Below are positions 2,036-62,949 of a stretch of 64,000 bases of DNA, one piece after another. The stretch comes from an uncultured Candidatus Saccharibacteria bacterium (GTDB taxonomy: Bacteria > Patescibacteriota > Doudnabacteria > UBA920), in assembly GCA_964504715.1 (NCBI GenBank), contig CAZDEP010000001.1, forward strand, positions 16,830-80,829. The letters are read 5' to 3'. A model generated the notes under the pieces. It was not told the origin of the DNA. It worked only from the letters and a program-made list of their open reading frames with translations, and made no database searches. The translations under genes and the position numbers were made by a program. Within the stretch, counting starts at the first letter, position 1, and each line of letters opens with the position of its first letter.

Positions 2036-5000
2036 TTGAAAACGAAACTAAAAGCAAAAATTGTGAGATTTTTAGGACACTCAAGGCGCTTGAAATTGGC
2101 TTTTGCGTCTTTTTTGCTATTGGCCTCCCTTGTTCCTATTGGGGGTTTATTTAGCTCTGCGCCGGCTGCGCGGGCCCAAACCACCGCTGGTACCAGTCCC
2201 AATACGGTATTTAAGGCGGAAAATTTGGATATTTCAATAGGTACGGACCCGAGCGGCAACGGGGTAAAAAGCGAATATAGAGTGGTTGTAAACGAGCCTT
2301 TAAAAATAAAATATTACTTAAATTGGGGACCGAGCACCCAAAACGGCTATCCGGCTTTGGATTCTACAATAAATACCGAGCGCACGTCCGCGGCATTAAA
2401 AGGTTTTTACGCCGGTTTTAACTACGCGGACTTTGATATTCCCCGTTGTTACAGCTATGGCGGCAGCGCAAATTGCGTACTTAATGCGACCTCCAAGGTA
2501 AGTACGAGCCTGCCTGTTTTGGAAGGTATGGACGTGCCGTATGCCACTCTAATTAAGGACGGAAATTTTCCCTTAAAAAGCGCATCCTCAACGCCCGTGG
2601 GTGAACCTTTGGGCTCCAAAGGTTTTGCTGTTTTTCCAATTTTGAAACTGGATTCCAACATGGGCAGTAATGACTATGGCTTGAGCAAGAATCCGGCCAA
2701 GCTCATAGTCAAGGTTTATGCCAATGAAGCATCCAGAAAAGCGTCGTTTGACAAAGATGGACTGCAATATATAGCCGGTCAGCAGGAAACCGGCCAGGCG
2801 GTTAATGTTACGGCGCGCGGCAGGTCCAGCACCCAAGCCAGTTCCCTAACTTCGTTTTTAAACGATTTGTTTACGGGCATTGCGCAGTTTTTTATTGGAT
2901 TGACTTATGTAGTTTTCACCAAAGTCATATCTCCGCTTTTGGAAGGTTTGCTGTCCATAAGGGTCTATACGGACCAGTTTGTAAATGTTATTTATCCCGG
3001 CTGGGAAGTGTTGCGCAACGTGGTGAATATTTATTTTATAATTGCCATTATTGCCATAGCTTTGGGCACGCTGTTTAGGCTCGAATCCTACCAGGCCAAG
3101 CATTTGCTGGTGCAGCTGATTATTGCGGCTTTAACGGTTAACTTTAGTTTGGTTATTGGCCAGGCCATTTTGGGCGTTGCGGACACGGTGCAAAGCCAGT
3201 TTTTGCCCAACAGCAGTACAGTCATAAGAGACCTGGGTAAAAATTTAATGCCCGCGAACATTCAGGACATTGTAAACGCCAATCCGTTGACGCAGGACAG
3301 CTTTTTTGGCAGCGCCATTACCACGCTGTTTTTAATGTCTATGGCTGTGGGTTCGTTTTTGGTTTTTGCCGCGATTGCCATTTTTTTGATTATTAGAATT
3401 ATAATGCTTTGGATTCTGCTTATGGTTTCGCCTTTGGCGTATGCGGCGCGCGTTTTGCCTTCCACGCAAAGTTTAAGCGGCCAGTGGTGGGGGGAATTTT
3501 TAAAGTATGCGTTCTTTACGCCGGTTATGGCGTTCTTCCTGAATTTAACCGCCATAATTGCGGTGAAATATGAATTTGTATTTAGGGATATAAACTCGCG
3601 CGTGGTGGCCGGGGATCCGCAGCTTAAGGATTTAAGCACGCTGATTTTTGCCACGGCCAGCAACATTTTGCTGTTGGTATTTTTGGTTGCGGCCATTCAG
3701 GTTGCGGACAAGTTTGGCATATACGGAGCGAATGTCATAACCACCACAGTCAAAACCGGCATGTTCGCACCGTTTGCGGGCGCAGGCGGCGCGGCGGCTT
3801 TGGCGGGTAAAGGGGCGCAATGGTTAGGCGGGGACGTTGCGGGCGGATGGCTGCAAAAAAAATACAACAACTGGACCGCAGGTTTGGCGGAGGGTTCCAG
3901 GGGCAAAAAGATTGCTTACGGTATGTTGCACTTGCCCACATATTTTAAATCTCTTAGGAAAGATTCTGGGGAAGAGCTGGAAAGAAGCAAGTCCTTAACT
4001 TCCGCTGCCGCTTTGAGCATTAAAAGGCAGACGCCAGGTTTTAGGAGGCAAGGTGAAGACCCCTTGGCTTTGTATAACGAACACCAAGGCAAAGAACTTA
4101 TGGAAGAACGCAGGGGTGAAGCTTCAAGCAGTGAACAGGATGAAGTCCAGTTTGCAATGCAGCTATGGAGGAAAGCGCGTGATGGGGACAAAGACGCTCA
4201 ACTTATGTTGCCTGAACAATTGCGCCGCATGTTTAAGAACCACAACATGAATGAATTTGTGGAAAATTTTGGTGAAGAGTTTGATATGGAATTTACGGGT
4301 GGTAGGAAGCTTCAATATAAGGATTTGAGATATAACAAAAATAATCTCGGCGGCGTTTTGGACTACATGAAAGCGAATGGCGCGTTGTCCCACCACGTTC
4401 ATGAAGACTTCCAAAAACGTTTAGGTTCACTGGCCTATGATTCGAAAGATTTTACAGGTGCGGAAATGACTTGGACTGACGAACATGGCCATGCTCATAC
4501 CATAAAAAGGGAATACGATCCGGCAACTGTTAGTTTTAAGACGGTCGGCATTGAAGATTATAACGCATTACGAGATTTTGCCTCCTTGGAAATACATAAC
4601 CGGGGATTAGATGTCTTACCTTCTGACGACGAACGGACTGTTGCCAGGAAAACTCGGGAGGCAGGTAGGATTGTCCATGCAGTTGAGACAGGTGATAATA
4701 CTTATGGATATGGGGCCTTACAGTCTACATTTCGCAGTTCAGCTCAAGCACGAGCTTTGCATGGTGGAAATGGCTTTAATGCGGTGAATTATGAAAATGC
4801 AATGCATGATCAAACGAAGATTTTGGAGAAACAAATCAACTTAAGCAAGCAGAAAGGTATTCAACAATTGGATCAGTGGTGGGAATCTCAAATATCTAAA
4901 GATAGTGCCGGAAACACAGTTTTTGGCAGCTCTGGGAAATATACATTCACCCATTTAACTTCAGGTCACGAATATATTGCAGGCCGTGATGGCATGGCTG

Positions 5001-6688: not shown

Positions 6689-6943
6689 ATGTTCTATGTT
6701 TATGTTTTACTTTCGAATAAAGATCATAAATTATATATTGGTTATACTAAAAATTTGAAATTAAGATTTGAGCAGCACGGTAATGGTGAGGTTGAATCAA
6801 CTAAAAATCGCAGGCCGTTGATTTTAATTTATTACGAAGCATGTTTGAATAGATCCGATGCAACAAAACGCGAGAAGTATTTTAAAACACATTATGGCCA
6901 TATGTTTATCAAAAAAAGGCTCAAATCTTATTTCACGGGGTAA
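6689..6943 (+). CDS. GIY-YIG domain nuclease (small stand-alone UPF0213/YhbQ-like type)
   Basis: N-terminal YVYVLLSNKDHKLYIGYTKNLKLRFEQH is a classic GIY-YIG signature (GIY ... YIG spacing, downstream R and E/H); 84 aa. Confidence 0.7.
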   Translation: MFYVYVLLSNKDHKLYIGYTKNLKLRFEQHGNGEVESTKNRRPLILIYYEACLNRSDATKREKYFKTHYGHMFIKKRLKSYFTG

Positions 6944-6948
6944 AAATC

Positions 6949-8088
6949 ATGCAACAAGCTGAACTAAACAAAATTACACAATTAGTAAAAGAATCTTCTC
7001 TATTAAATCCCCAGGAGCGGGAAGAGTGGCTGACTTTAATGGGCTTGATGAATGACAAGCAGCTTTTGGAATTGGAGAAAATATTGGATAGTAACCGGCA
7101 AGCACCCATTGCCAAGCCGGCGCCTTTGGTGCCGCCTTTGGGCAGTTTAATTCCGGCAAAAACGCCCATTGTGCCTGAAAAAAAGGTGCCCGCACCGAAT
7201 TTTGCCGCGCCGAATTTGAGTCATATAGTCAATTTGCCCAAAGTTGGAGCCGTTTTTCCGCATCCCGTGGCGGCTATTGCCAAACCCGCGCCTAAGCTTG
7301 CTGAAAAACCCGCCTCAGCAAAGCCCCTTTCGGCCGGGAATGGTTTTTGGAGTAAAGTTAAGGACGTACTGGCGGAAAAAGAACTGCCTCCCGGGCATAA
7401 GGAACCAACCGAGGAGCTGGAGCTCATAGGCCCGCGGCCGCAAAAATTGCCCGCGCCCCTTCCGCCCAAAAAGCCCGGCGCGGAACCGACTAAAATATTT
7501 GCCCAAAATGTTTACATAAGCCCGTTGCCGCCGCAAAACCCCGCGCCGCACAAAGATTTAATTTTGCCCTCCCGAGGCCAAGTTGAACTTTCTGCAAAAA
7601 AGGTTTTGGAGCCAAAAGCCCAAACGCCTGAGCAGATCGACAAGCTGTTTGTTGCCGGCCTCAAGAATACCAAGGTTTTAATGGATGCCAAATTGGAAGC
7701 CGAACGCAAAAGATTGGCGCCAATTTTGCCTCCGGTCTTGGCGCCCAAAACCCCGGCCGGACAACTTCCAAAAATTTCCACCCCGTCATCACAGCCTGTA
7801 TTTTCCCTTACTAAAGTTGAAGATGTGGAACAGCTTAAAGGCGGCACTGTAAATTCCCAAGAAGCTTCCAAACTCGGTGATCAATTAAGGGATTTGGTGC
7901 GTATGTACGGTTACCACAAAGTGGTTTTCAGTCTGGAAAAAAGTCCGGCTTATAAAAGCTATATAAACACCGGTTTGGCAGCGCTTTCCGGAAAATACGA
8001 TTTCGGGCCAAACGGCAGTGGCGGCAAGTATATGAGCCGGGAAGAGTTTGAAAGCTTTGTGGACGTTTTAAGGAAAATGAAGGGTTAA
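6949..8088 (+). CDS. Hypothetical Pro/Ala/Lys-rich protein, low-complexity middle, structured N- and C-termini
   Basis: Intact 379-aa ORF; the middle has PAP/PKP-type repeats; no catalytic motif. Confidence 0.35.
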   Translation: MQQAELNKITQLVKESSLLNPQEREEWLTLMGLMNDKQLLELEKILDSNRQAPIAKPAPLVPPLGSLIPAKTPIVPEKKVPAPNFAAPNLSHIVNLPKVGAVFPHPVAAIAKPAPKLAEKPASAKPLSAGNGFWSKVKDVLAEKELPPGHKEPTEELELIGPRPQKLPAPLPPKKPGAEPTKIFAQNVYISPLPPQNPAPHKDLILPSRGQVELSAKKVLEPKAQTPEQIDKLFVAGLKNTKVLMDAKLEAERKRLAPILPPVLAPKTPAGQLPKISTPSSQPVFSLTKVEDVEQLKGGTVNSQEASKLGDQLRDLVRMYGYHKVVFSLEKSPAYKSYINTGLAALSGKYDFGPNGSGGKYMSREEFESFVDVLRKMKG

Positions 8089-8197: not shown

Positions 8198-8650
8198 ATG
8201 CAATATCCGGTACCACAATTCACCGATGTAGAGGACAAGCTCATAGGGCCTTTGGGCGCTAAGCAGTTTTTTATTGTTTTCGCAGCGGGCATCCTTATTT
8301 TTGCCGGATATTCCGCCACCAAAAGCATAGTAGCTCTCATTTTGCTGATTGTAATTTTCGGCTTGCCGGCTTTGGGTCTGGCGTTTGCCAAAATCAACGG
8401 CAGGCCCGCTTACAGGCAGCTTGGCTTTTTAATGTCTTTTTTTACCGCGCCCAAAAAACTGATTTTCCATAAAGAAGCGGTAAATTTTTCCCAAGAGACC
8501 AAAATGAAGGACATAAAGCTGGAAACGCAAGATACGGGGCCGGTTGAATCAAAAGAAACCACCCAGCAAAGGCTAAAAACAGTCCAGGAGCTATTAAGGA
8601 AACAGCAGGAAGAGGAAGAGATGCTTATTGACAAAATTGACCATAATTAA
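8198..8650 (+). CDS. PrgI-family (VirB3-analogous) small membrane protein of Gram-positive-type T4SS
   Basis: N-terminus VPQFTDVEDKLIGPLGAKQFFIVFAAGILIF matches the PrgI consensus (vp.di..EDKi.GPLtlRQf), followed by two TM helices. It sits directly upstream of VirB4, as in conjugation operons. Confidence 0.6.
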   Translation: MQYPVPQFTDVEDKLIGPLGAKQFFIVFAAGILIFAGYSATKSIVALILLIVIFGLPALGLAFAKINGRPAYRQLGFLMSFFTAPKKLIFHKEAVNFSQETKMKDIKLETQDTGPVESKETTQQRLKTVQELLRKQQEEEEMLIDKIDHN

Positions 8651-8744
8651 AAAATTGACAAAATTATGAAGCAGAAAATTAAGTCCTAAAGCAAAAAGCA
8701 ATTTTGTCATTTATGTCAATTTTTTAAATTTTGTCAATATTTAT

Positions 8745-9450: not shown

Positions 9451-9910
9451 TCAGATCTGCAGATGGGCGGATTTTACAGATACCTACAGATTTTAAAAGA
9501 TAAAGCTTATGGAAAAAAATGAATTCCTGTACGGTGACGAGACTTATAAATTAAGGGGACTGCTTTTTTCTGTTCATAACGAACTTGGCAGGTTTGCCAA
9601 AGAAAAACAATATTGCGACAAAGCCGAGGAAAAGTTTATCATTAACCAGTGGCCACATGTTAGAGAACCCCAAATCGGAGATATTGGTGATAGACCGGAT
9701 TTTATAGTCTGGGACTTAATTGTTGTTGAGTTTAAAGCAAAACCGTATTCGCAACAATCAGATTTTGAGCAGGTGCAACGTTATTTGCAGCAGACTAAAT
9801 TGAAATTAGGCATACTGGTAAATTTTAGGGCAAAATATTTGAATCCCCAAAGAATTTTGAATATTAATCATCTGCAGGTATCTGTAAAATCTAAAGATCT
9901 GTAGATCGGA
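9451..9910 (+). mobile_element. Element of about 460 bp, bounded by ~33-bp terminal inverted repeats, carrying a GxxExxY-family ORF and inserted into the VirB4 gene
   Basis: Left end is acagatgggcggattttacagatacctacagat. Right end is atctgcaggtatctgtaaaatctaaagatctgtagatcgg, the reverse complement of the left end with a few mismatches. A cargo-less copy of the same ends abuts at 37296-37392. Confidence 0.6.
9509..9904 (+). CDS. GxxExxY-family protein (PD-(D/E)XK nuclease-like fold), cargo of the inserted element
   Basis: LLFSVHNELGRFAKEKQY resembles the family motif (..v..eLGpGflEsvYe..). The spacing here is GxxxxExxY, so the match is a variant. The ORF's C-terminal codons lie inside the right terminal inverted repeat. 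Confidence 0.5.
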   Translation: MEKNEFLYGDETYKLRGLLFSVHNELGRFAKEKQYCDKAEEKFIINQWPHVREPQIGDIGDRPDFIVWDLIVVEFKAKPYSQQSDFEQVQRYLQQTKLKLGILVNFRAKYLNPQRILNINHLQVSVKSKDL

Positions 9911-11770: not shown

Positions 11771-11860
11771 TTGACATAATTGACAAAATTTAAATAATTG
11801 ACAAGATTGGGATTCGAAATTTTGCTCAATTTTGTTCAATTATGTCATTTTTGTCAATTT
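11771..11860. promoter_or_regulatory. Dyad-symmetric array of TTGACA-like repeats (about 3 forward, 4 reverse) upstream of the 970-aa gene
   Basis: ttgacataattgacaaaatttaaataattgacaag ... tttgctcaattttgttcaattatgtcatttttgtcaattttt. Similar arrays are at 8655-8740, 55519-55560 and 60705-60750. Confidence 0.45.
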
Positions 11861-37443: not shown

Positions 37444-37725
37444 ATGCTTACACGTGAGGAAGTAATAAAACTTTCCCAGCTGGCAAGGATAGAACTTAGC
37501 GACACAGAGGTGGAAAAGTTCCAGAAGGACCTGTCCGCGGTTTTTGAGTATGTGGAAGAATTAAAACAGGTGAATGTGGAAGGCCTGGAGGAAGTTTCCC
37601 AGGTTACCGGGCTGGTAAATGTCCAGAGGGAAGACAAAGTTGTGGACCACGGCAACCGCGAGGAAATTTTTACCCAGGCGCCGGAAATGAAAGATGGGTA
37701 CTTTAAAGTGAAAGCAATTTTATAG
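37444..37725 (+). CDS. gatC: Asp/Glu-tRNA amidotransferase subunit C
   Basis: 93 aa. The pattern IT.EEV.KLA.LARIELSD.E...F..DL..V...VE.L is GatC-like. It sits immediately upstream of gatA. Confidence 0.8.
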   Translation: MLTREEVIKLSQLARIELSDTEVEKFQKDLSAVFEYVEELKQVNVEGLEEVSQVTGLVNVQREDKVVDHGNREEIFTQAPEMKDGYFKVKAIL

Positions 37726-37798: not shown

Positions 37799-39286
37799 AT
37801 GACTTTTGAATTTTTATCTCTAACTGACTTACGCAAGCTTTTAGACACCAAACAGGTTTCGTCTGTCGAACTGACGAAATATTTTTTGGAGCGCATAAAA
37901 AAGTATGACAAGGAACTCAATTCCTTCATTACCGTTTGCGAAGAGGAGGCCCTTAAGCAGGCCAAGGACGCTGATGATTTTATAAATAGTCCCGGAGAAA
38001 ATCCTTTTCTTTGCGGGATTCCGTATGCGGCCAAAGACCTGTTCTGCACCAACGGAATACGCACCACCGCAGCTTCCAAAATTTTAGATAACTACATACC
38101 GCCCTACGATTCGACCGTCATTGCCAAATTAAAAGAGCAAAAGGCCGTATTGGTCGGCAAAACCAATTTGGACCAGTTTGCACACGGGTCTTCGGGCGAA
38201 ACGTCCGCTTACGGCCCGACCAAAAACCCCTGGGATAAAACCCGCATGCCGGGCGGTTCTTCTTCGGGCTCGGCTTCCGCCGTTGCGGCGGGCCTGGTGC
38301 CATGGGCCACGGCCACAGAAACCGGCGGCAGCATCCGCCAGCCGGCATCCTTAACCGGGCTTTCCGGCTGGAAACCCACCTACGGCCGAGTAAGCCGCTA
38401 CGGCGTTGTGGCCATGGGTTCATCGCTCGATTCAATTGGCGCCATGGCGGGGAGCGTGGAGGAATTGGCCTATTTGGCAGAATTTATGTCGGGTCGAGAT
38501 GAAAAAGATTCCACCACAGGTCCTACTGAAGTTCCGCGTTATGCATCTTTGCTGTCAAAAGATATTAAGGGCCTGAAAGTTGGGATCCCGAAGGAATATT
38601 TTGTGGAAGGCATGGAGGCGGACGTAAAAGCGCGGGTGTTTGAAGCCATAAAAGAATTGGAAAAACTGGGCGCTAAACTTTACGACGTAAGTTTGCCCAA
38701 CACCAAATACGGTTCTTTGGTTTACGCCATAGTCTGTCCGTCCGAGGTCTCTTCCAATTTAATGCGCTACGACGGCATTCGTTTTGGTTATACATCGAAA
38801 GAAGCAAAAAATTTAATGGAAGTTTACGCCAAAAGCCGGGCGGAAGGTTTTGGCAATGAAGCCAAAAGGCGGATTATGACGGGCACGTACGTTCTTTCCG
38901 CCGGGTATTTTGACGCCTACTATAAAAAGGCGCAAAAAGTTAGAAGGCTGATAGTCAATGAATTCGAAGAAGTTTTTAAAACTGTGGATGTGCTGGCCTG
39001 CCCGTCTTCCCCAAACGTGGCTTCGACTTTAGGCAAGGCGGCGGAAAATCCGCTGCACGGCTACATTGCCGACCAGTTGAACATTCCGGGCAGCTTGGCC
39101 GGCTTGCCTGCGCTTTCGGTCCCGTGCGGTTTTGGCAAACCCAGCGAGGGTGCTTCGCCCTCCATGGACGGCCTGCCCGTGGGCTTACAAATTATTGGCC
39201 CGCAGTGGGGGGAGCAAACGGTATTTAACGTCGGCCACGCGTATCAAAGCGTGACGGATTGGCATAAGAAACACCCCTCAATTTAG
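37799..39286 (+). CDS. gatA: Asp/Glu-tRNA amidotransferase subunit A (amidase signature family)
   Basis: Amidase signature GGSSSGSASAVAAG with catalytic Ser-cisSer-Lys context (KDLFCT...GGSSGGS). Confidence 0.9.
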   Translation: MTFEFLSLTDLRKLLDTKQVSSVELTKYFLERIKKYDKELNSFITVCEEEALKQAKDADDFINSPGENPFLCGIPYAAKDLFCTNGIRTTAASKILDNYIPPYDSTVIAKLKEQKAVLVGKTNLDQFAHGSSGETSAYGPTKNPWDKTRMPGGSSSGSASAVAAGLVPWATATETGGSIRQPASLTGLSGWKPTYGRVSRYGVVAMGSSLDSIGAMAGSVEELAYLAEFMSGRDEKDSTTGPTEVPRYASLLSKDIKGLKVGIPKEYFVEGMEADVKARVFEAIKELEKLGAKLYDVSLPNTKYGSLVYAIVCPSEVSSNLMRYDGIRFGYTSKEAKNLMEVYAKSRAEGFGNEAKRRIMTGTYVLSAGYFDAYYKKAQKVRRLIVNEFEEVFKTVDVLACPSSPNVASTLGKAAENPLHGYIADQLNIPGSLAGLPALSVPCGFGKPSEGASPSMDGLPVGLQIIGPQWGEQTVFNVGHAYQSVTDWHKKHPSI

Positions 39287-39311: not shown

Positions 39312-39842
39312 ATGGACGAAATCAGAGAATTAATATTGAGAGGAGAAACCTTTCCTGCTAAGCAGGAAGTTGTTTTTGCTCCTGATTATATTTTAGATGT
39401 TGATCAGGAAACTGAGAAAGTCTTAAATCAATACCATAAAATTGGAGTAGACGCCACTAATTTAGTAGCATTAGTTGATGAACCTTTTACTCCAGAAGAG
39501 TATCGGGATGGAAAAAAGACATTGTTGTTAAAAGAAATTCCTGTAATTTCCCCAAAAGCAAGGATTCAGGAATTGGAAAATTATAGAAAGCGTTACAGGG
39601 GAATGTATGATGAAAGGAATGAAAGTTCGGGTATTTTCGTAAACATTGCTGGTACTCGGATTAAATCTCGAAAAGAAAACCCAAGAGAAGTTATGATTTT
39701 TGATTTTATTAGAACATCTAAAGGGGTGGTTGAGTGTCAGTGTTATAAATTGTTAGAAGAAGGACGTTTGAACAACGCCTTTTCTCATAGCATTAATTTT
39801 CCATATAATAGGGAATCGCTCCATGTTTATAATATGGATTAA
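39312..39842 (+). CDS. Hypothetical protein inserted between gatA and gatB
   Basis: 176-aa intact ORF with no motif; it interrupts the otherwise canonical gatCAB operon. Confidence 0.35.
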   Translation: MDEIRELILRGETFPAKQEVVFAPDYILDVDQETEKVLNQYHKIGVDATNLVALVDEPFTPEEYRDGKKTLLLKEIPVISPKARIQELENYRKRYRGMYDERNESSGIFVNIAGTRIKSRKENPREVMIFDFIRTSKGVVECQCYKLLEEGRLNNAFSHSINFPYNRESLHVYNMD

Positions 39843-39848
39843 ATAACT

Positions 39849-41441
39849 ATGAAATCTTTTCCCATATCAACCGAATACAAACCCGTAATTGGTTTTGAAA
39901 TTCACGTCCAGCTGAATACGAAGTCCAAAATGTTTGGGCGGGCGGCGAATAATCCGGACCAGAGCGTGCCGAATACGGACATAGACGAGGTCAATACCGG
40001 CCAGCCGGGGACTTTGCCTGTGGCAAACAAGGAAGCCATCCGCTTGGCCGCCATGGTGGGTTTGGCTTTGAATTGCACAATTGACGAGTGGAGCAAGTTT
40101 GACCGCAAACACTATTTTTATCCCGATTTGCCGAAAGGCTACCAAATTTCGCAGTACGACCAACCGATATCTAAGAATGGGTGGTTGGATGTTGCTGTGC
40201 CTGTCATTGCGAGGAGGAATGCATCTGACGACGAAGCAATCTTACCCCAGGAACAGATTGCTTCGGCCAGTCAAGGATCTGGCCTCGCAATGACAAAAAC
40301 TAAAAGAATCGGCATCACCCGTGCTCATTTAGAAGAAGATGCCGGGAAAAACGTGCATCCCGAGGGCTTGAATTATTCTTTGGTGGATTACAACCGCGCG
40401 GGCGCGCCCTTGCTCGAAATTGTTACGGAGCCGGAAATAGAAAGCGGCGAAGAAGCCAAGGCCTTTTTAACCGAGCTTAGAAATATTATCCGCTATTTGG
40501 GCGCATCGAGCTGCGACATGGAAAAAGGCACCATGCGCGTGGAGCCGAACATTAGCGTGCGAAAGCCCGGCGAAACCACGTTGCCGAAATACAAAGTGGA
40601 AGTTAAGAACATCAACTCCATTAAATTCGCCCAAGCCGCTATAGACTACGAAATTGCGCGGCAAACGGAAATATTAAAAGAGAACGGCGTGCCGAAGCAG
40701 GTGACCATGGGCTGGAATGAAAAGGAAAACAAAACGGTGGAGCAGAGGAGTAAGGAAGAGGCCAATGACTACCGCTACTTCCCGGACCCGGACTTGCCCG
40801 TGTTGCAGTTTACCAAAGCCTATTTGGACGATCTTCGTAATAAAATGCCGGAACTGCCCGCGCAAAAGCGCGAGCGATTTATGAGCGAATACAATTTGCC
40901 TGCGGCAGATGTGGAAAATTTAATAAACTGGAAAGAGCTGGCCGCATTTTTTGAAGATGTGGTGAGCGAGATTCAGGAGTGGAAATTAGTAGATATTGGG
41001 GGAAATTGGGATATTAATGGCACAATAAAACTGGCTGTCAATTGGTGTTTGGGCGAGTTTAGCGCGAATTTGAATCAAAATCATATAAACCCCCAAGACT
41101 CACGTGTGGACGCCGAGAATTTTGCCGAACTTTTGAAAATGATCCAGAAAGGCGAAATTTCCGGCAGTGCCGCCAAACAAGTTTTTAAAGTCATGTTTGA
41201 AAAGGGTGGCGATCCATCTAACATTGTAGAAGACCTAGGCCTTTCGCAAGTGAGCGACGAGTCGGCAATTTCTTCGGCAATCGACACTGTAATATCTAAT
41301 AACCCGAAAGCCGTAGCCGACTTTAAAGCCGGTGAGCAAAAAAGTTTTGGTTTCCTTGTGGGCCAAGCCATGAAAGAACTGAAAGGCAAGGGGAATCCGC
41401 AGGTGATAAACCAGCTTCTTAAAAAGAAGCTGGAGTATTAA
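39849..41441 (+). CDS. gatB: Asp/Glu-tRNA amidotransferase subunit B, containing a 32-codon in-frame insertion
   Basis: FQISQYDQPISKNGW ... KRIGITRAHLEEDAGK ... plus a C-terminal YqeY-like domain. The insertion lies between NGWLDVAV and KTKRIGITR (B. subtilis has only GG there, as recalled from memory). Confidence 0.9.
   Translation: MKSFPISTEYKPVIGFEIHVQLNTKSKMFGRAANNPDQSVPNTDIDEVNTGQPGTLPVANKEAIRLAAMVGLALNCTIDEWSKFDRKHYFYPDLPKGYQISQYDQPISKNGWLDVAVPVIARRNASDDEAILPQEQIASASQGSGLAMTKTKRIGITRAHLEEDAGKNVHPEGLNYSLVDYNRAGAPLLEIVTEPEIESGEEAKAFLTELRNIIRYLGASSCDMEKGTMRVEPNISVRKPGETTLPKYKVEVKNINSIKFAQAAIDYEIARQTEILKENGVPKQVTMGWNEKENKTVEQRSKEEANDYRYFPDPDLPVLQFTKAYLDDLRNKMPELPAQKRERFMSEYNLPAADVENLINWKELAAFFEDVVSEIQEWKLVDIGGNWDINGTIKLAVNWCLGEFSANLNQNHINPQDSRVDAENFAELLKMIQKGEISGSAAKQVFKVMFEKGGDPSNIVEDLGLSQVSDESAISSAIDTVISNNPKAVADFKAGEQKSFGFLVGQAMKELKGKGNPQVINQLLKKKLEY
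40201..40296. repeat. 96-bp palindromic MITE-like element inserted in-frame in gatB
   Basis: Arms tgtcattgcgagg / cctcgcaatgaca; inner arms cgacgaagcaatc / gattgcttcgg. A second copy of the same family lies intergenic at 42977-43083. Confidence 0.65.
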
Positions 41442-41497: not shown

Positions 41498-41940
41498 ATA
41501 GCATGATTTTGTTTCAATGTACTAGTACGGTAATGAAAATTGAATAATGAAGTAAAAATAATGAATTAAAAAGCAAAAAAAGGCACCGCCGACTGGTAAA
41601 ACTGTCGGCGGTGTTTTGAAAACCTCCCTCATTAGCGGAGGTGTTTCCCCGAGCGGGGAAACTCCGAACCCCCGAGACTGGGGGAGTGGGAGGGGGGCGG
41701 AGAAGGAACTTTGGTTATTCCTCCTCCATGACATATCATCTTGGTGTCCTCTTGTGGTTTCTTTTTTTCCCCTGGGGGTTGTGTAAACCCTGGGGGCGCG
41801 AAATCGGGGTTATCAGTGCTGTCACACATGCCTAAAAGTTTAAAATATTTTTTTGTTTTTTTCAAGAGGTTATATTTTTTTGTTAATATTGTTCTCGACA
41901 AGCTCGAACAATATGGGGGCGTGTATTTTTGCAAACATAA

Positions 41941-42976: not shown

Positions 42977-43083
42977 CTGTGTCATTGCGAGGAGACAGGG
43001 CCTAGTCTGTCGACGAAGCAATCTAGCAGTTGGGTTTATGTGAAAGATTGCTTCGGTCGTCTAACTCCCTCGCAATGACACAA
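42977..43083. repeat. Intergenic copy of the palindromic MITE-like element found in gatB
   Basis: ctgtgtcattgcgagg ... cgacgaagcaatc ... gattgcttcggtcg ... cctcgcaatgacacaa. Confidence 0.65.
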
Positions 43084-49677: not shown

Positions 49678-50907
49678 ATGAGACAATCACATTATTTTTT
49701 AAAAACCAGCAAGACCCAGCCCGGGGAGGACCTTTCCACCAACGCGCGGCTTTTGGAGCAGGGCGGTTTTGTCCAAAAAGTTTTGGCGGGCGTTTATGAT
49801 TTTTTGCCTTTGGGCTTAAGGGTCCTTTCGCGCATTGAAAATATTGTCAGGCAGGAAATGGACAAAATCGGAAGCGAAATGTTTATGCCTGTTTTGCATC
49901 CGAAAGAAAATTGGCAGGCTACGGGCCGGTGGACGGGATTGGACGTGCTTTTTAAAATCAAATCCCAGCATGGCAGCGAATACGCCATGGGGCCTACCCA
50001 CGAAGAAATAGTCACGCCGGCGGCCCAAGCCGTAATATCTTCTTATAAAGATTTGCCTTTGGCTGTGTATCAGATCCAAACCAAATTCCGGGACGAACCT
50101 CGGGCAAAGTCCGGCCTTATGCGCGGCAGGGAATTTAGGATGAAAGACCTGTACAGCTTCCATGCGACCGCAGAGGATTTGGAAAACTATTATACCAACG
50201 TGGCCATGCCGGCTTACGAAAAAATATTTAAGCGGTTGGGCTTAAACGCTTTGCTGACGGAGGCTTCCGGCGGGACATTTTCCAAATTTTCCCACGAATA
50301 CCAGGTAGAAATTCCAAGCGGGGAAGACACGATTTACATATGCGAAAAATGCAATTTAGCCAAGAACAAAGAGATTTTTGAAGCAGGTGTAAAGTGTTCG
50401 GCCTGCGGCAGCGACAAATATAGGGAAACCAAAGCGTCGGAAGTGGGCAATATTTTTAAATTGCAGAATAAGTATTCTTCGGCTTTTAATTTGCAGTTTA
50501 CGGACAAGGACGGTTCCAAAAAGCCTGTGCTTATGGGCTGTTATGGGATAGGCACCAGCCGGCTTATGGGCGTAAGCGTGGAAAAATACCACGACGAAAA
50601 GGGCATAATTTGGCCCGAGGCCATTGCTCCTTTTAAGGTGCATCTTTTGGCGCTTAAAGGCGGGGAAAAAGCGGCCGATGAGTTGTATGAGGCTTTATTA
50701 AAGACGGGAATTGAAGTATTATATGACGACAGGGAAGCCAGCGCCGGGGTGAAGTTTGCGGATGCGGATTTAATAGGCATACCTTACAGGGTACTGGTCA
50801 GCGAAAAGACCCTCAAAGAGGAGAGTGTGGAGGTGAAAAAAAGGAGCGAGGAAAAAACAAAATTAGTTAAAATAAAAGATGTTTTACCAATTTTCCAGAA
50901 CAAATAA
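49678..50907 (+). CDS. proS: Prolyl-tRNA synthetase (short class II form lacking the bacterial editing domain)
   Basis: Class II motifs, an N-terminal pattern (FLKTSKTQPGEDLSTNARLLEQGGFVQKVLAGVYDFLPLGLRV) that reads as ProRS-like by recall, a zinc-binding insertion CEKCN...CSACG, and a C-terminal anticodon-binding domain. Confidence 0.8.
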   Translation: MRQSHYFLKTSKTQPGEDLSTNARLLEQGGFVQKVLAGVYDFLPLGLRVLSRIENIVRQEMDKIGSEMFMPVLHPKENWQATGRWTGLDVLFKIKSQHGSEYAMGPTHEEIVTPAAQAVISSYKDLPLAVYQIQTKFRDEPRAKSGLMRGREFRMKDLYSFHATAEDLENYYTNVAMPAYEKIFKRLGLNALLTEASGGTFSKFSHEYQVEIPSGEDTIYICEKCNLAKNKEIFEAGVKCSACGSDKYRETKASEVGNIFKLQNKYSSAFNLQFTDKDGSKKPVLMGCYGIGTSRLMGVSVEKYHDEKGIIWPEAIAPFKVHLLALKGGEKAADELYEALLKTGIEVLYDDREASAGVKFADADLIGIPYRVLVSEKTLKEESVEVKKRSEEKTKLVKIKDVLPIFQNK

Positions 50908-51033
50908 TTTTCAATTTGTAATTTTCAATTTTCAGTCAGTTTTCAATTTAAAATTTTTTTACTTTGGATCATTCATTGAAAATTAGAAAATAAAAATTGA
51001 AAATTTAGAGACCCTGGTCTTAAATTTTCAATT

Positions 51034-55500: not shown

Positions 55501-55689
55501 GTGGATAATATTGGCATAATTGAACAAAATTGACAAAAATAATAAAAATGACAAAAATAAAGATAATAGGATCCAAATTTCAAATATCAAATTACCAATT
55601 TCAAATAAATTTTTAAATGGCTTAATGTCAGAAATTGGAAATTTAAGAATTAAAATTTTTTTGGAATTTGATATTTGTAATTTGAAATT

Positions 55690-60211: not shown

Positions 60212-60364
60212 TTAACCTAATTGTTCTAATTGACCTAATTTCTAAACAATGACTAATGTTAAATAAACAAATGTCAAACCGCTGGAGTTCTTAGACATTA
60301 TTGTATTTGGCATGAGAAATTGTTTAGATCAATTAGAAATTAGAATAATTAGAAATTTAAAACT

Positions 60365-61630: not shown

Positions 61631-61668
61631 AAAAATGCCTTTCTGCAAGATGCAGAAGGGCATTTTAA
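61631..61668 (+). terminator. Rho-independent terminator after rplA
   Basis: aaaatgcctttctgca-agat-gcagaagggcatttt followed by aaaatt. Confidence 0.6.
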
Positions 61669-62949
61669 AATTCGCGAAAAAAAAGAAAAACCGGCGCGCT
61701 GGTTGGCGGCCGGTTTTGTTTTGGGGCGGGGCAGGGATGGTTATCCTTTCCCCGCCTGGTAAGGGGGTTTGCCGGGATCCACGGGTGGATCCCAGTTGAA
61801 TGGTTCTGGTTCTTCGCGGTCGCAATCAACCGCGAATAAAATTTTATATTCGCTAAAGTCGTATATCATAGCCCTTGTCATAACGCCCTCCGTTATGATT
61901 TTAAGGCCATTCGCAAGCTTTTTACGTATAGTCTTAAAGCCATAAATTTTTTGTAAAAATAAAAAACCAGCCCCTTGCGGGACCGGTACTTTGTTATGGA
62001 TAATTCTCGACTAAACTCGAATATTATCAACAAAAACAAACCCAAAGCCCCTTAAGGAGGTAAGGCTAAGAAGGAGCGAGAGGTTGTTTAAGAAATTATG
62101 CATTTGTTATATTTTATCAGGCTGTGGGAGTTTGTCAAATGTGGGCGCAGATTTCACGCGGAATTACTGCAGACGCGGATACACGCGGAAGGTTATAAAT
62201 AAGGGAGCGGAGGGACTCCCTAGAGGCGATGTATAGAACATCAGCTTAGGGAATCGCTCCGCTGAGGATTAGATCCCGGTAAAAAATCTCCATCGGTCGT
62301 ACCGAGGGTTGATCTTTTCTTCCGCCTCGGGGGCGGAAGGGGGTTGGGCGGTTGCCGGCTCTTCGCCGGCGGTTTGGGTTTGGGGGCCTTCATCGGACCC
62401 TTCCCCAAAATAATTGAGTTTATTTTGGTCGGACATAAGTTTGGGCATTTTTAATTTAAAACTTGCCCAAGCTAATGGCTGCAAAACTTTTTCCTCCTTT
62501 TTTAGGGTGCCTGGTTTGCCTATTTTTAAATAAGCAAAATTACGCATCCTATTTATTGCGTTACCCCTCCCTAACCTTCCCCCTAAAGGGGAGGGAGCTT
62601 AAAAAGTATTGTGCGTTCTGTAGCGTGCCCATTTATGGGCTGGAATATATTGATGGCTGCAGCCGATAAATCGGCACACTACGTCGCATCGTTTTTATTA
62701 AAAAATAAAGGTTAATTAAAAACCCCTGCCTTTTAGGCAGGGGTTTGAGAGTTTAGATTAAACTAAAAACTCTTCCGCTGCCGGAGGCCGGGGATAATAA
62801 TAATGCTAATTATGCTTGCAGACGCGCTGATATTTGTGAACATAAACTTGTTGATAAAACTGCCCGTAAAAGGCATTTATTATGCTTATTTTAAGCACCG
62901 GAAAAAATTTTGTCAAGCAATAATTTATGGTGTAGAATAAATCAAGTCA

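Follow-up and report, generated by a model that had tools for sequence, protein, structure and literature searches.

How does a palindromic repeat come to lie within a conserved and essential gene, and what becomes of the gene and its product? This question is raised by gatB, which encodes a subunit of the GatCAB tRNA-amidotransferase, in a stretch of 64,000 nucleotides (the window) of contig CAZDEP010000001.1 from an uncultured Candidatus Saccharibacteria bacterium placed in the Doudnabacteria, within the Patescibacteria or candidate phyla radiation (CPR). A first-pass annotation, made from the letters of the sequence, had noticed extra codons in this gene, read the underlying DNA as an element resembling a miniature inverted-repeat transposable element (MITE) with a second copy between genes, and proposed that the gene either tolerates it or has domesticated it as a surface loop. 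We conclude that the insert is very probably a tolerated selfish palindromic repeat, translated as a flexible loop of about 30 residues and not domesticated. The features on which this argument turns are the following.

39849-41441, plus strand: gatB, the gene that holds the insertion (open reading frame (ORF) and translation; 530 codons plus stop)
40200-40295, plus strand: 32 inserted codons, P118-T149 (PVIARRNASDDEAILPQEQIASASQGSGLAMT), delimited by alignment with 120 orthologs and by codon-level comparison with the empty sites of the related loci L004, L250, L254 and L331
40202-40295, no strand: palindromic element of 94 nt, a head-to-head dimer of two units (inverted repeats 13/13 and 11/11; hairpin of -45 kcal/mol, z = -6 on either strand)
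40202-40242, plus strand: left unit of the gatB copy, with tag TGTC, box A GTCATTGCGAG (40203-40213), a 19-nt spacer and box B GAAGCAATC (40233-40241), the architecture being taken from 341 units elsewhere
40243-40254, no strand: central loop between the units, 12 nt
40255-40295, minus strand: right unit of the gatB copy, with tag TGTC, box A (40294-40284), spacer hairpin GGCCAG-8 nt-CTGGCC and box B (40264-40256)
42980-43080, no strand: second copy, 101 nt, with the same four boxes as the gatB copy; its palindrome reaches 42978-43082
42980-43024, plus strand: left unit of the second copy, with side hairpin GACAG-8 nt-CTGTC
43045-43080, minus strand: right unit of the second copy

A palindromic repeat inside an intact gatB

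To judge from its intact HLEEDAGK motif and its closely similar orthologs, gatB with its insert is a functional gene. A protein identical to the window GatB is matched by the Pfam families GatB_N and GatB_Yqey, and the window GatB aligns with the T. maritima protein (3AL0_B) at E = 7e-130 and is 74-86% identical to 47 aligned orthologs, with up to 86% identity to insert-free ones. Upstream of the gene lie, in order, gatC (37444-37722), gatA (37799-39286) and a 176-codon ORF without a Pfam match. Because the identical protein is found on three contigs, and the contig shown here in two samples, the insert is not an assembly artefact.

In the window protein, PVIARRNASDDEAILPQEQIASASQGSGLAMT is flanked by ...NGWLDVAV and KTKRIGITRAHLEEDAGK, and the 32 codons replace the two-residue turn (GG or NG) of insert-free orthologs. 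The earlier placement of the insert at 40201-40296 was right about the 32 in-frame codons and one base off in position, the codons occupying 40200-40295 and the palindrome 40202-40295. Its outer arms, TGTCATTGCGAGG and CCTCGCAATGACA (40202-40214 and 40283-40295), are complementary at 13 of 13 positions, and its inner arms, CGAAGCAATCT and AGATTGCTTCG (40232-40242 and 40255-40265), at 11 of 11. The perfection noted before is limited to these arms, since the 17-nt spacers between outer and inner arms show no mutual complementarity.

The second copy does lie in noncoding DNA, as had been reported, at 42980-43080 instead of 42977-43083, and has the four boxes in common with the gatB copy and nothing else; its spacers and loop are unrelated. 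It lies 31 nt beyond the miaA stop (43111), downstream of that gene, and upstream of a promoter-like site (12/12 match) of the PEP-CTERM gene, and its polarity is opposite, with the side hairpin on the left where the gatB copy has it on the right. The recurrence of the boxes in the two copies exceeds chance: an exact 12-mer and an exact 11-mer each occur four times in the 64 kb, all inside the two copies, and the 11-mer at one mismatch gives five matches where 1.1 are expected, a number that none of 100 shuffles reaches. Both hairpins, at -45 kcal/mol in gatB and -51 kcal/mol between the genes, also beat shuffled sequences (z = -6 and -8, respectively).

A two-hairpin unit found in many phyla

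The two copies belong to a family whose unit, roughly 26-45 nt long, consists of a (C/T)GTC tag, ATTGC, GA, a variable hairpin, GAA, GCAAT and a short tail; complete elements are two such units placed head to head around a variable loop. All four units of the window follow this plan and start with TGTC. The pattern used in the search was GTCATTGCGAG-N(1-31)-GAAGCAATC, in which ATTGC and GCAAT are invariant by construction, and it gave at least 120 matches in a viral collection and at least 120 in a genome collection. The matches listed come from at least 12 phyla and also from phage contigs, the hosts of the unit including Alphaproteobacteria (Bradyrhizobium, Sphingomonas, Novosphingobium, Rickettsiales and Micavibrio), Gamma- and Deltaproteobacteria, Bacteroidota, Chloroflexota, Cyanobacteria, Zixibacteria, Planctomycetota, Latescibacterota, Melainabacteria, Sporomusa, Helicobacter rodentium and Patescibacteria, the last with the Doudnabacteria metagenome-assembled genome (MAG) L144. 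A single replicon of Novosphingobium resinovorum holds at least 40 places with the unit. Of the 341 unique units listed, 180 have C and 145 have T ahead of GTC, and the 3' tail is most commonly CCA (C-CAG; 92/341), with many CTC or CCC, the window units ending in CTT, CTG, CTA and CTT. The phage GenBank collection gave no match to the window's own element, and a full-text literature search on the box sequences returned unrelated primers only.

Comparison of the units suggests a conserved fold in the variable segment as well. Across 177 unique spacers, pairing from the ends inward has a mean of 3.95, compared with 1.0 in shuffles, and the stems covary. Many of these segments read GCGNAGC, the sequence of an unusually stable DNA mini-hairpin (PMC13037366), and others have the form G-GA-stem-loop-stem-GA-C with tandem G.A pairs. 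Because the conserved fold contains G.A pairs, it is confined to one strand of each unit, and the two units of a dimer present it on opposite strands. This strand specificity hints that single-stranded DNA, and not RNA alone, could be the recognised form.

In-frame units of the family are also present in UvrA, in GuaA (GMP synthase), in a terminase and in three portal-MuF fusion proteins of phages (L244, L219, L048, L064 and L127), and the repeat-encoded peptides of the three portals are alike (EIAS...LAMT / ARND). In L144 (Candidatus Doudnabacteria MAG, 4565-4925) the same outer boxes enclose about 300 nt with five tandem 27-nt repeats, so the loop of the element is able to carry other repeats.

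Small size, terminal inverted repeats, a non-autonomous nature and the capacity to fuse in frame with host ORFs are traits that the element has in common with bacterial MITEs such as Correia, ERIC and Nezha (reviewed in PMC10969869), and a classical MITE would be a deleted derivative of an insertion sequence (IS), mobilised by a DDE transposase through recognition of the 13-nt terminal inverted repeats. An IS256/Mutator-family transposase ORF of 308 aa does lie between two partial dimers in L179 (Patescibacteria MAG, 556-1838). However, this ORF looks like an IS that landed in or beside the repeat and is not bounded by complete elements, and no parent autonomous IS with the same ends is present among the ORFs neighbouring the units. 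Furthermore, none of the 109 head-to-head dimers listed among about 350 units elsewhere has a target-site duplication: direct repeats of k = 2-8 at offsets 0-2 are at or below expectation, while the palindrome of these dimers runs one base further out (C|G in 68, T|A in 20). Nor is any protein family enriched beside 351 units, where 884 ORFs within 300 nt were clustered and compared with 4160 farther away; the clusters near the units are phage structural and housekeeping genes only. Half elements outnumber complete ones about threefold (123 single units and 38 dimers among the matches listed of the viral sample), and the interior is a modular pair of hairpin units with covarying stems, not that of a deleted IS. 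As 109 copies lack a target-site duplication, the element is not a classical MITE by this measure, and a MITE origin seems very improbable to us.

Relation to known palindromic repeats

The closest published parallel is found in the CGTC-tagged repetitive extragenic palindromes (REPs) described by Di Nocera, De Gregorio and Rocco in 2013 (PMC3733652). These carry an unpaired CGTC tag (with variants TGTC and CCTC), a stem of 8-9 bp starting with A-T, a loop of 4-5 nt and an unpaired 3-nt tail that is mostly CCA; they occur mostly as head-to-head dimers without a transposase in several phyla, chiefly in Alphaproteobacteria, include Neisseria dRS3 and Rickettsia RPE-4 and RPE-6, and have intragenic copies (PMC3733652). 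The family of the window agrees with them in its CGTC or TGTC tag, in a stem starting with AT, in head-to-head dimers without a transposase gene, in its multi-phylum and strongly alphaproteobacterial distribution, in its usual position just downstream of genes and in occasional in-frame copies, for example in uvrA and in tRNA-related enzymes. It differs in having a stem of only 5 bp (ATTGC/GCAAT), a purine internal loop (GA/GAA) and a second, variable hairpin of 7 to over 30 nt; the tails of the window copies are CTT, CTA or CTG and not the CCA of the family consensus, and the host belongs to the Patescibacteria, a group outside the published survey. Of the earlier label, then, the mobile palindrome stands, while the missing target-site duplications and the lack of an associated transposase take away its MITE character, and the anatomy is that of a head-to-head dimer of CGTC-type REPs.

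Two further systems invite comparison. Rickettsia palindromic elements (RPEs) are selfish repeats that lie between genes and also in frame within housekeeping genes, where they are translated and presumably sit at places that the fold tolerates (PMC10969869, PMC3733652). The element of the window behaves likewise, being found between genes and in frame in a conserved gene, with orthologs that lack it, which is a likeness of behaviour. In contrast to elements of the RPE-1 type, which measure about 150 bp and are specific to Rickettsia, it is 94-101 bp long and built from a unit common to many phyla. REP doublets forming hairpins (REPINs) have a GTAG tag and a single-copy gene for a REP-associated tyrosine transposase (RAYT) flanked by REPs (Bertels and Rainey 2011, PMC3116915; PMC3337134). 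They resemble our family in the two inverted units with a spacer, the long hairpin, the doublet as the seemingly mobile form and the absence of target duplications, but the tag of our family is (C/T)GTC, and a scan of 27 window ORFs (20 small ORFs and the immediate neighbours) for the Y1-transposase domain gave no hit. A literature search on CPR bacteria and palindromic insertions turned up nothing specific.

Many palindromes in one loop of GatB

We classified 121 aligned GatB sequences, namely the query and its 120 best hits, of which the closest (70-84% identity) include proteins named Candidatus Doudnabacteria or Patescibacteria. The minimal turn (V-NGK-TKRIGITRAHL, in proteins of about 497 aa) is present in 46 of them and a slightly longer turn in 11, while 64 carry 15-60 extra residues at exactly the insert site. 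The extra residues are of at least six kinds: the window's element with PVIAR..DEAI..IAS..LAMT (kind A, in the query and nine orthologs), ..FAKASSDKF.. (B), several proline/GEG types (C), PFMG..ADKSA.YK. (D), TTPSA.AATPP..GG..GGGG. (E) and the GADL..SSPT type (F). In the DNA of eight such orthologs' genes every insert is hairpin DNA, and an insert-free gene has no hairpin; at least six unrelated palindrome families share one loop of GatB. Close orthologs (76-86% identical outside the insert) have either no insert (V-NGK-TKR) or the same element as palindromic DNA, and an ortholog with the same 32 residues on DNA that is not palindromic, the finding that would have separated the insert from the intergenic repeat, was not among them.

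On a rival reading, the loop would be a true hot spot at which, as at the site downstream of miaA, unrelated hairpin repeats successively nest in or replace one another, whether because they home to an existing hairpin or because they recognise the local DNA, so that a site-specific mechanism and not mere tolerance would account for the pattern. Several points are suggestive. At least six unrelated hairpin families sit on the same few codons among GatBs that share 70-84% identity with the query, and its three nearest relatives have three other families there; some pairs of unlike state (none and C, or B and C) differ by only 3-7% in their core residues; and a B-type insert is nested inside an E-type one in L008 and L251. 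A Pro right after the strand begins most inserts of whichever family. Moreover, in the relative L009 the site orthologous to that of the intergenic copy is occupied, at about 7480-7530, by a different palindrome (ACATGACGGTCTTCTTGC..), whose family is also represented in the window at 1856-1895 (ATGACGGTCTTCTTGC...GCAAGAAGACCGTCAT), beside a perfect 18-bp hairpin at 1798-1836.

Other observations weigh on the opposite side. The length of the loop varies across phyla, so selection alone can concentrate the surviving insertions here. The gatB genes of P0057 (with insert; L330) and P0117 (without insert; L331) consist of nucleotide blocks of 100% identity alternating with patches of 82-95%, the largest patch lying around the insert site. 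This mosaic points to homologous recombination between Doudnabacteria lineages, by which old alleles may have been moved, and the fast turnover would therefore be apparent in part. At their left junction the four A-type alleles with DNA all read CCT GTC ATT GCG AG, which fits one ancestral insertion of the kind A family, and junctions common within a family suggest one event per family; at roughly one event per family, there would have been six to ten independent arrivals in the one loop. Nor is there a target sequence common to the empty sites: TGTC...GACA was considered as a target motif, being present in the empty site of L004, and was rejected when three other empty sites proved to be without it. 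A second length-variable region of GatB (window about 40980-41035, residues ~379-393) also collects such peptides (GADIIRPQEGKMVSSP, SSRSAGLARDDS and SGTPRRAG in orthologs), and there the window stretch is not palindromic. We hold a targeted hot spot at either site to be rather unlikely.

The insert is kept in frame

In general the dimers show no preference for lengths that keep a reading frame. The 109 dimers from other genomes have length residues modulo 3 in the proportion 41/37/31, and only 16% of their readings (by orientation and frame) are both a multiple of three and free of stops. It had been asked whether copies inside genes are always a multiple of three; for copies in general no such bias exists, but every gatB insert is in frame. 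At the protein level this holds for 64 of 64 inserts, and in a sample independent of gene calls, a tblastn scan of metagenome contigs that yielded about eight close gatB loci (63-81% identical), every locus with both anchor motifs is in frame, including five of five with inserts, all open. Because copies in general lack a bias toward multiples of three, the frame kept in gatB points to selection acting on an insert that is translated.

Translation combined with purifying selection would predict such a pattern, which argues against splicing or ribosomal bypass. The very stable hairpin (-45 kcal/mol) within a coding region could otherwise bring to mind an intervening sequence removed from the mRNA, or bypassed like the mitochondrial 'byp' elements, leaving a GatB without the 32 residues. 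Were the insert untranslated, its length and stop content would be free, whereas all inserts in both samples are in frame and open. In addition, an Rfam 15 scan of the window at the gathering score gave three tRNAs only, and at an E-value threshold around both copies the best hits were microRNA models (E = 0.13 to 8), with no relevant family, intron or ribozyme. The layout of a hammerhead ribozyme core (CTGACGA / stem / GAA) was compared by eye and rejected, the GAA after stem II being missing. We consider an untranslated insert extremely improbable.

A probably tolerated loop at a hairpin tip

By sequence, the insert maps to residues 108-115 of T. maritima GatB (3AL0 chain B) and to residues 112-115 of the A. 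aeolicus protein. An AlphaFold2 model from a 48-sequence alignment, with a mean predicted local distance difference test (pLDDT) score of 80, puts it between strands 108-118 and 149-163, at the tip of a beta-hairpin that belongs to the N-terminal (cradle) domain; in the model the loop is disordered, with pLDDT < 50 for residues 123-145. Since the flanking anchor motifs are 23 to 48 residues apart in other phyla, this tip tolerates changes of length in general. The earlier idea of a tolerated in-frame surface loop is supported by this structural mapping to a length-variable hairpin tip.

Its companion, domestication, fares worse. One could argue that the 32 residues have gained a function in GatCAB, such as a contact with tRNA, GatA or a partner, and are maintained because selection acts on the peptide; in favour of this, an essential and otherwise conserved gene has kept the insert, the VIAR...AMT peptide recurs in ten GatB sequences (the query and nine orthologs), and the arms are still perfect. 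Yet conservation among the alleles is confined to the same four DNA boxes that intergenic copies conserve, the residues between these boxes varying in sequence and length, while about half of the close orthologs have no insert and others have unrelated sequences in its place. Together with the low pLDDT over the insert and with at least six unrelated families in the same loop, this makes a domesticated loop very improbable.

Thus, we suggest that the insert is a non-autonomous palindromic repeat, a head-to-head dimer spread over many phyla and phage contigs, of which one copy would have landed at the beta-hairpin tip of the cradle domain of GatB. That copy owes its survival to a length and a reading frame that leave the gene open, and it would be transcribed and translated with gatB to give a flexible loop of about 30 residues on an otherwise normal enzyme, a loop that is probably tolerated and not used, and presumably neutral for the function of GatCAB. 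As for movement, hairpin DNA in single-stranded form would be the likely substrate of an enzyme acting in trans; to our knowledge, no dedicated transposase is known for this repeat family.

Several points weigh against this explanation in one part or another. The published geometry of CGTC REPs (8-9 bp stem, 4-5 nt loop) failed for our family, which has five Watson-Crick pairs and spacers of 1-31 nt, and its box sequences and typical encoded peptides are absent from the supplements of PMC3733652, so that it is at most a candidate member of one of the four families named there. Nearest-neighbour energies of single units were no better than those of shuffles in five of six tests, the exception being the right unit of the gatB copy (-9.3 kcal/mol folded as DNA, z = -3.0), and it is from comparative evidence alone that the unit-level fold is proposed. 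The 64-kb window holds only two copies. Furthermore, both arm pairs of the gatB copy are perfect although the four A-type alleles probably stem from one old insertion, which hints at some force that keeps the hairpin intact and that pure neutrality does not explain. Finally, frame conservation alone leads us to infer translation of the insert, and the unbiased DNA-level sample with inserts is small, at five loci.

Other features of the window

The small gene that lies between gatA and gatB differs from relative to relative. In the window (39312-39842, plus strand) it is the 176-aa ORF without a Pfam hit mentioned above, while in L002, L004, L005, L008, L009 and L330 the slot is taken by a 23S_rRNA_IVP four-helix protein, by a GIY-YIG nuclease, by a PemK toxin or by further ORFs that gave no hits; it has the look of a place where small selfish genes land.

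Further palindromic DNA is present in the window. AT-rich imperfect palindromes with arms of 20-40 nt lie at 8626-8741, 11772-11859, 50906-51005, 55574-55689 and 60224-60354, with words like TTGACAAAATTGAC or TTTCAAAT, and may be another class of repeat. GC-rich clusters of adjacent hairpins, in a genome that is lower in G+C, occur at 41560-41710 and 61660-61810 (-60 to -68 kcal/mol over 150 nt), one of them downstream of the gatB terminator and the other reaching into the end of a 209-codon ORF and coding there for a PLPGGER-type peptide. The selfish genes of CPR genomes typically include small stand-alone nuclease genes, and the window has two, for a GIY-YIG protein (84 aa, 6689-6940) and a PDDEXK_3 protein (131 aa, 9509-9901), for which no link to the palindromes was found.

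Implications

A single insertion in gatB is not in itself surprising, since the Rickettsia RPEs had already shown that palindromic repeats can lie in frame in essential genes. What is added here is a cross-phylum unit with a conserved two-hairpin plan, a CPR host and a loop of GatB filled by many families. The presence of at least six families in one loop of one protein among close relatives differs from what RPEs show, and we know of no description of such multi-family filling of one protein loop for them. A repeat unit of at least 12 phyla and phage contigs proves to be active, or else to have been retained, in the tiny genome of a CPR bacterium as well, and the two-hairpin unit, with its mini-hairpins of the GCGNAGC type, offers a concrete substrate for seeking the enzyme that moves CGTC-type repeats. 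The GatB loop, in turn, provides alleles of close relatives in a natural series, some empty and others filled, nested or replaced, on which the arrival, persistence and loss of repeats could be measured. Annotators should bear in mind that translated selfish DNA may account for part of the 'CPR-specific insertions' in conserved proteins. Moreover, if the hot spot is true, hairpin-targeted movement would be common to the 'orphan' CGTC-type and other REP-like repeats in small CPR genomes, and lineage-specific loops in essential proteins of CPR bacteria would regularly arise from such repeats.

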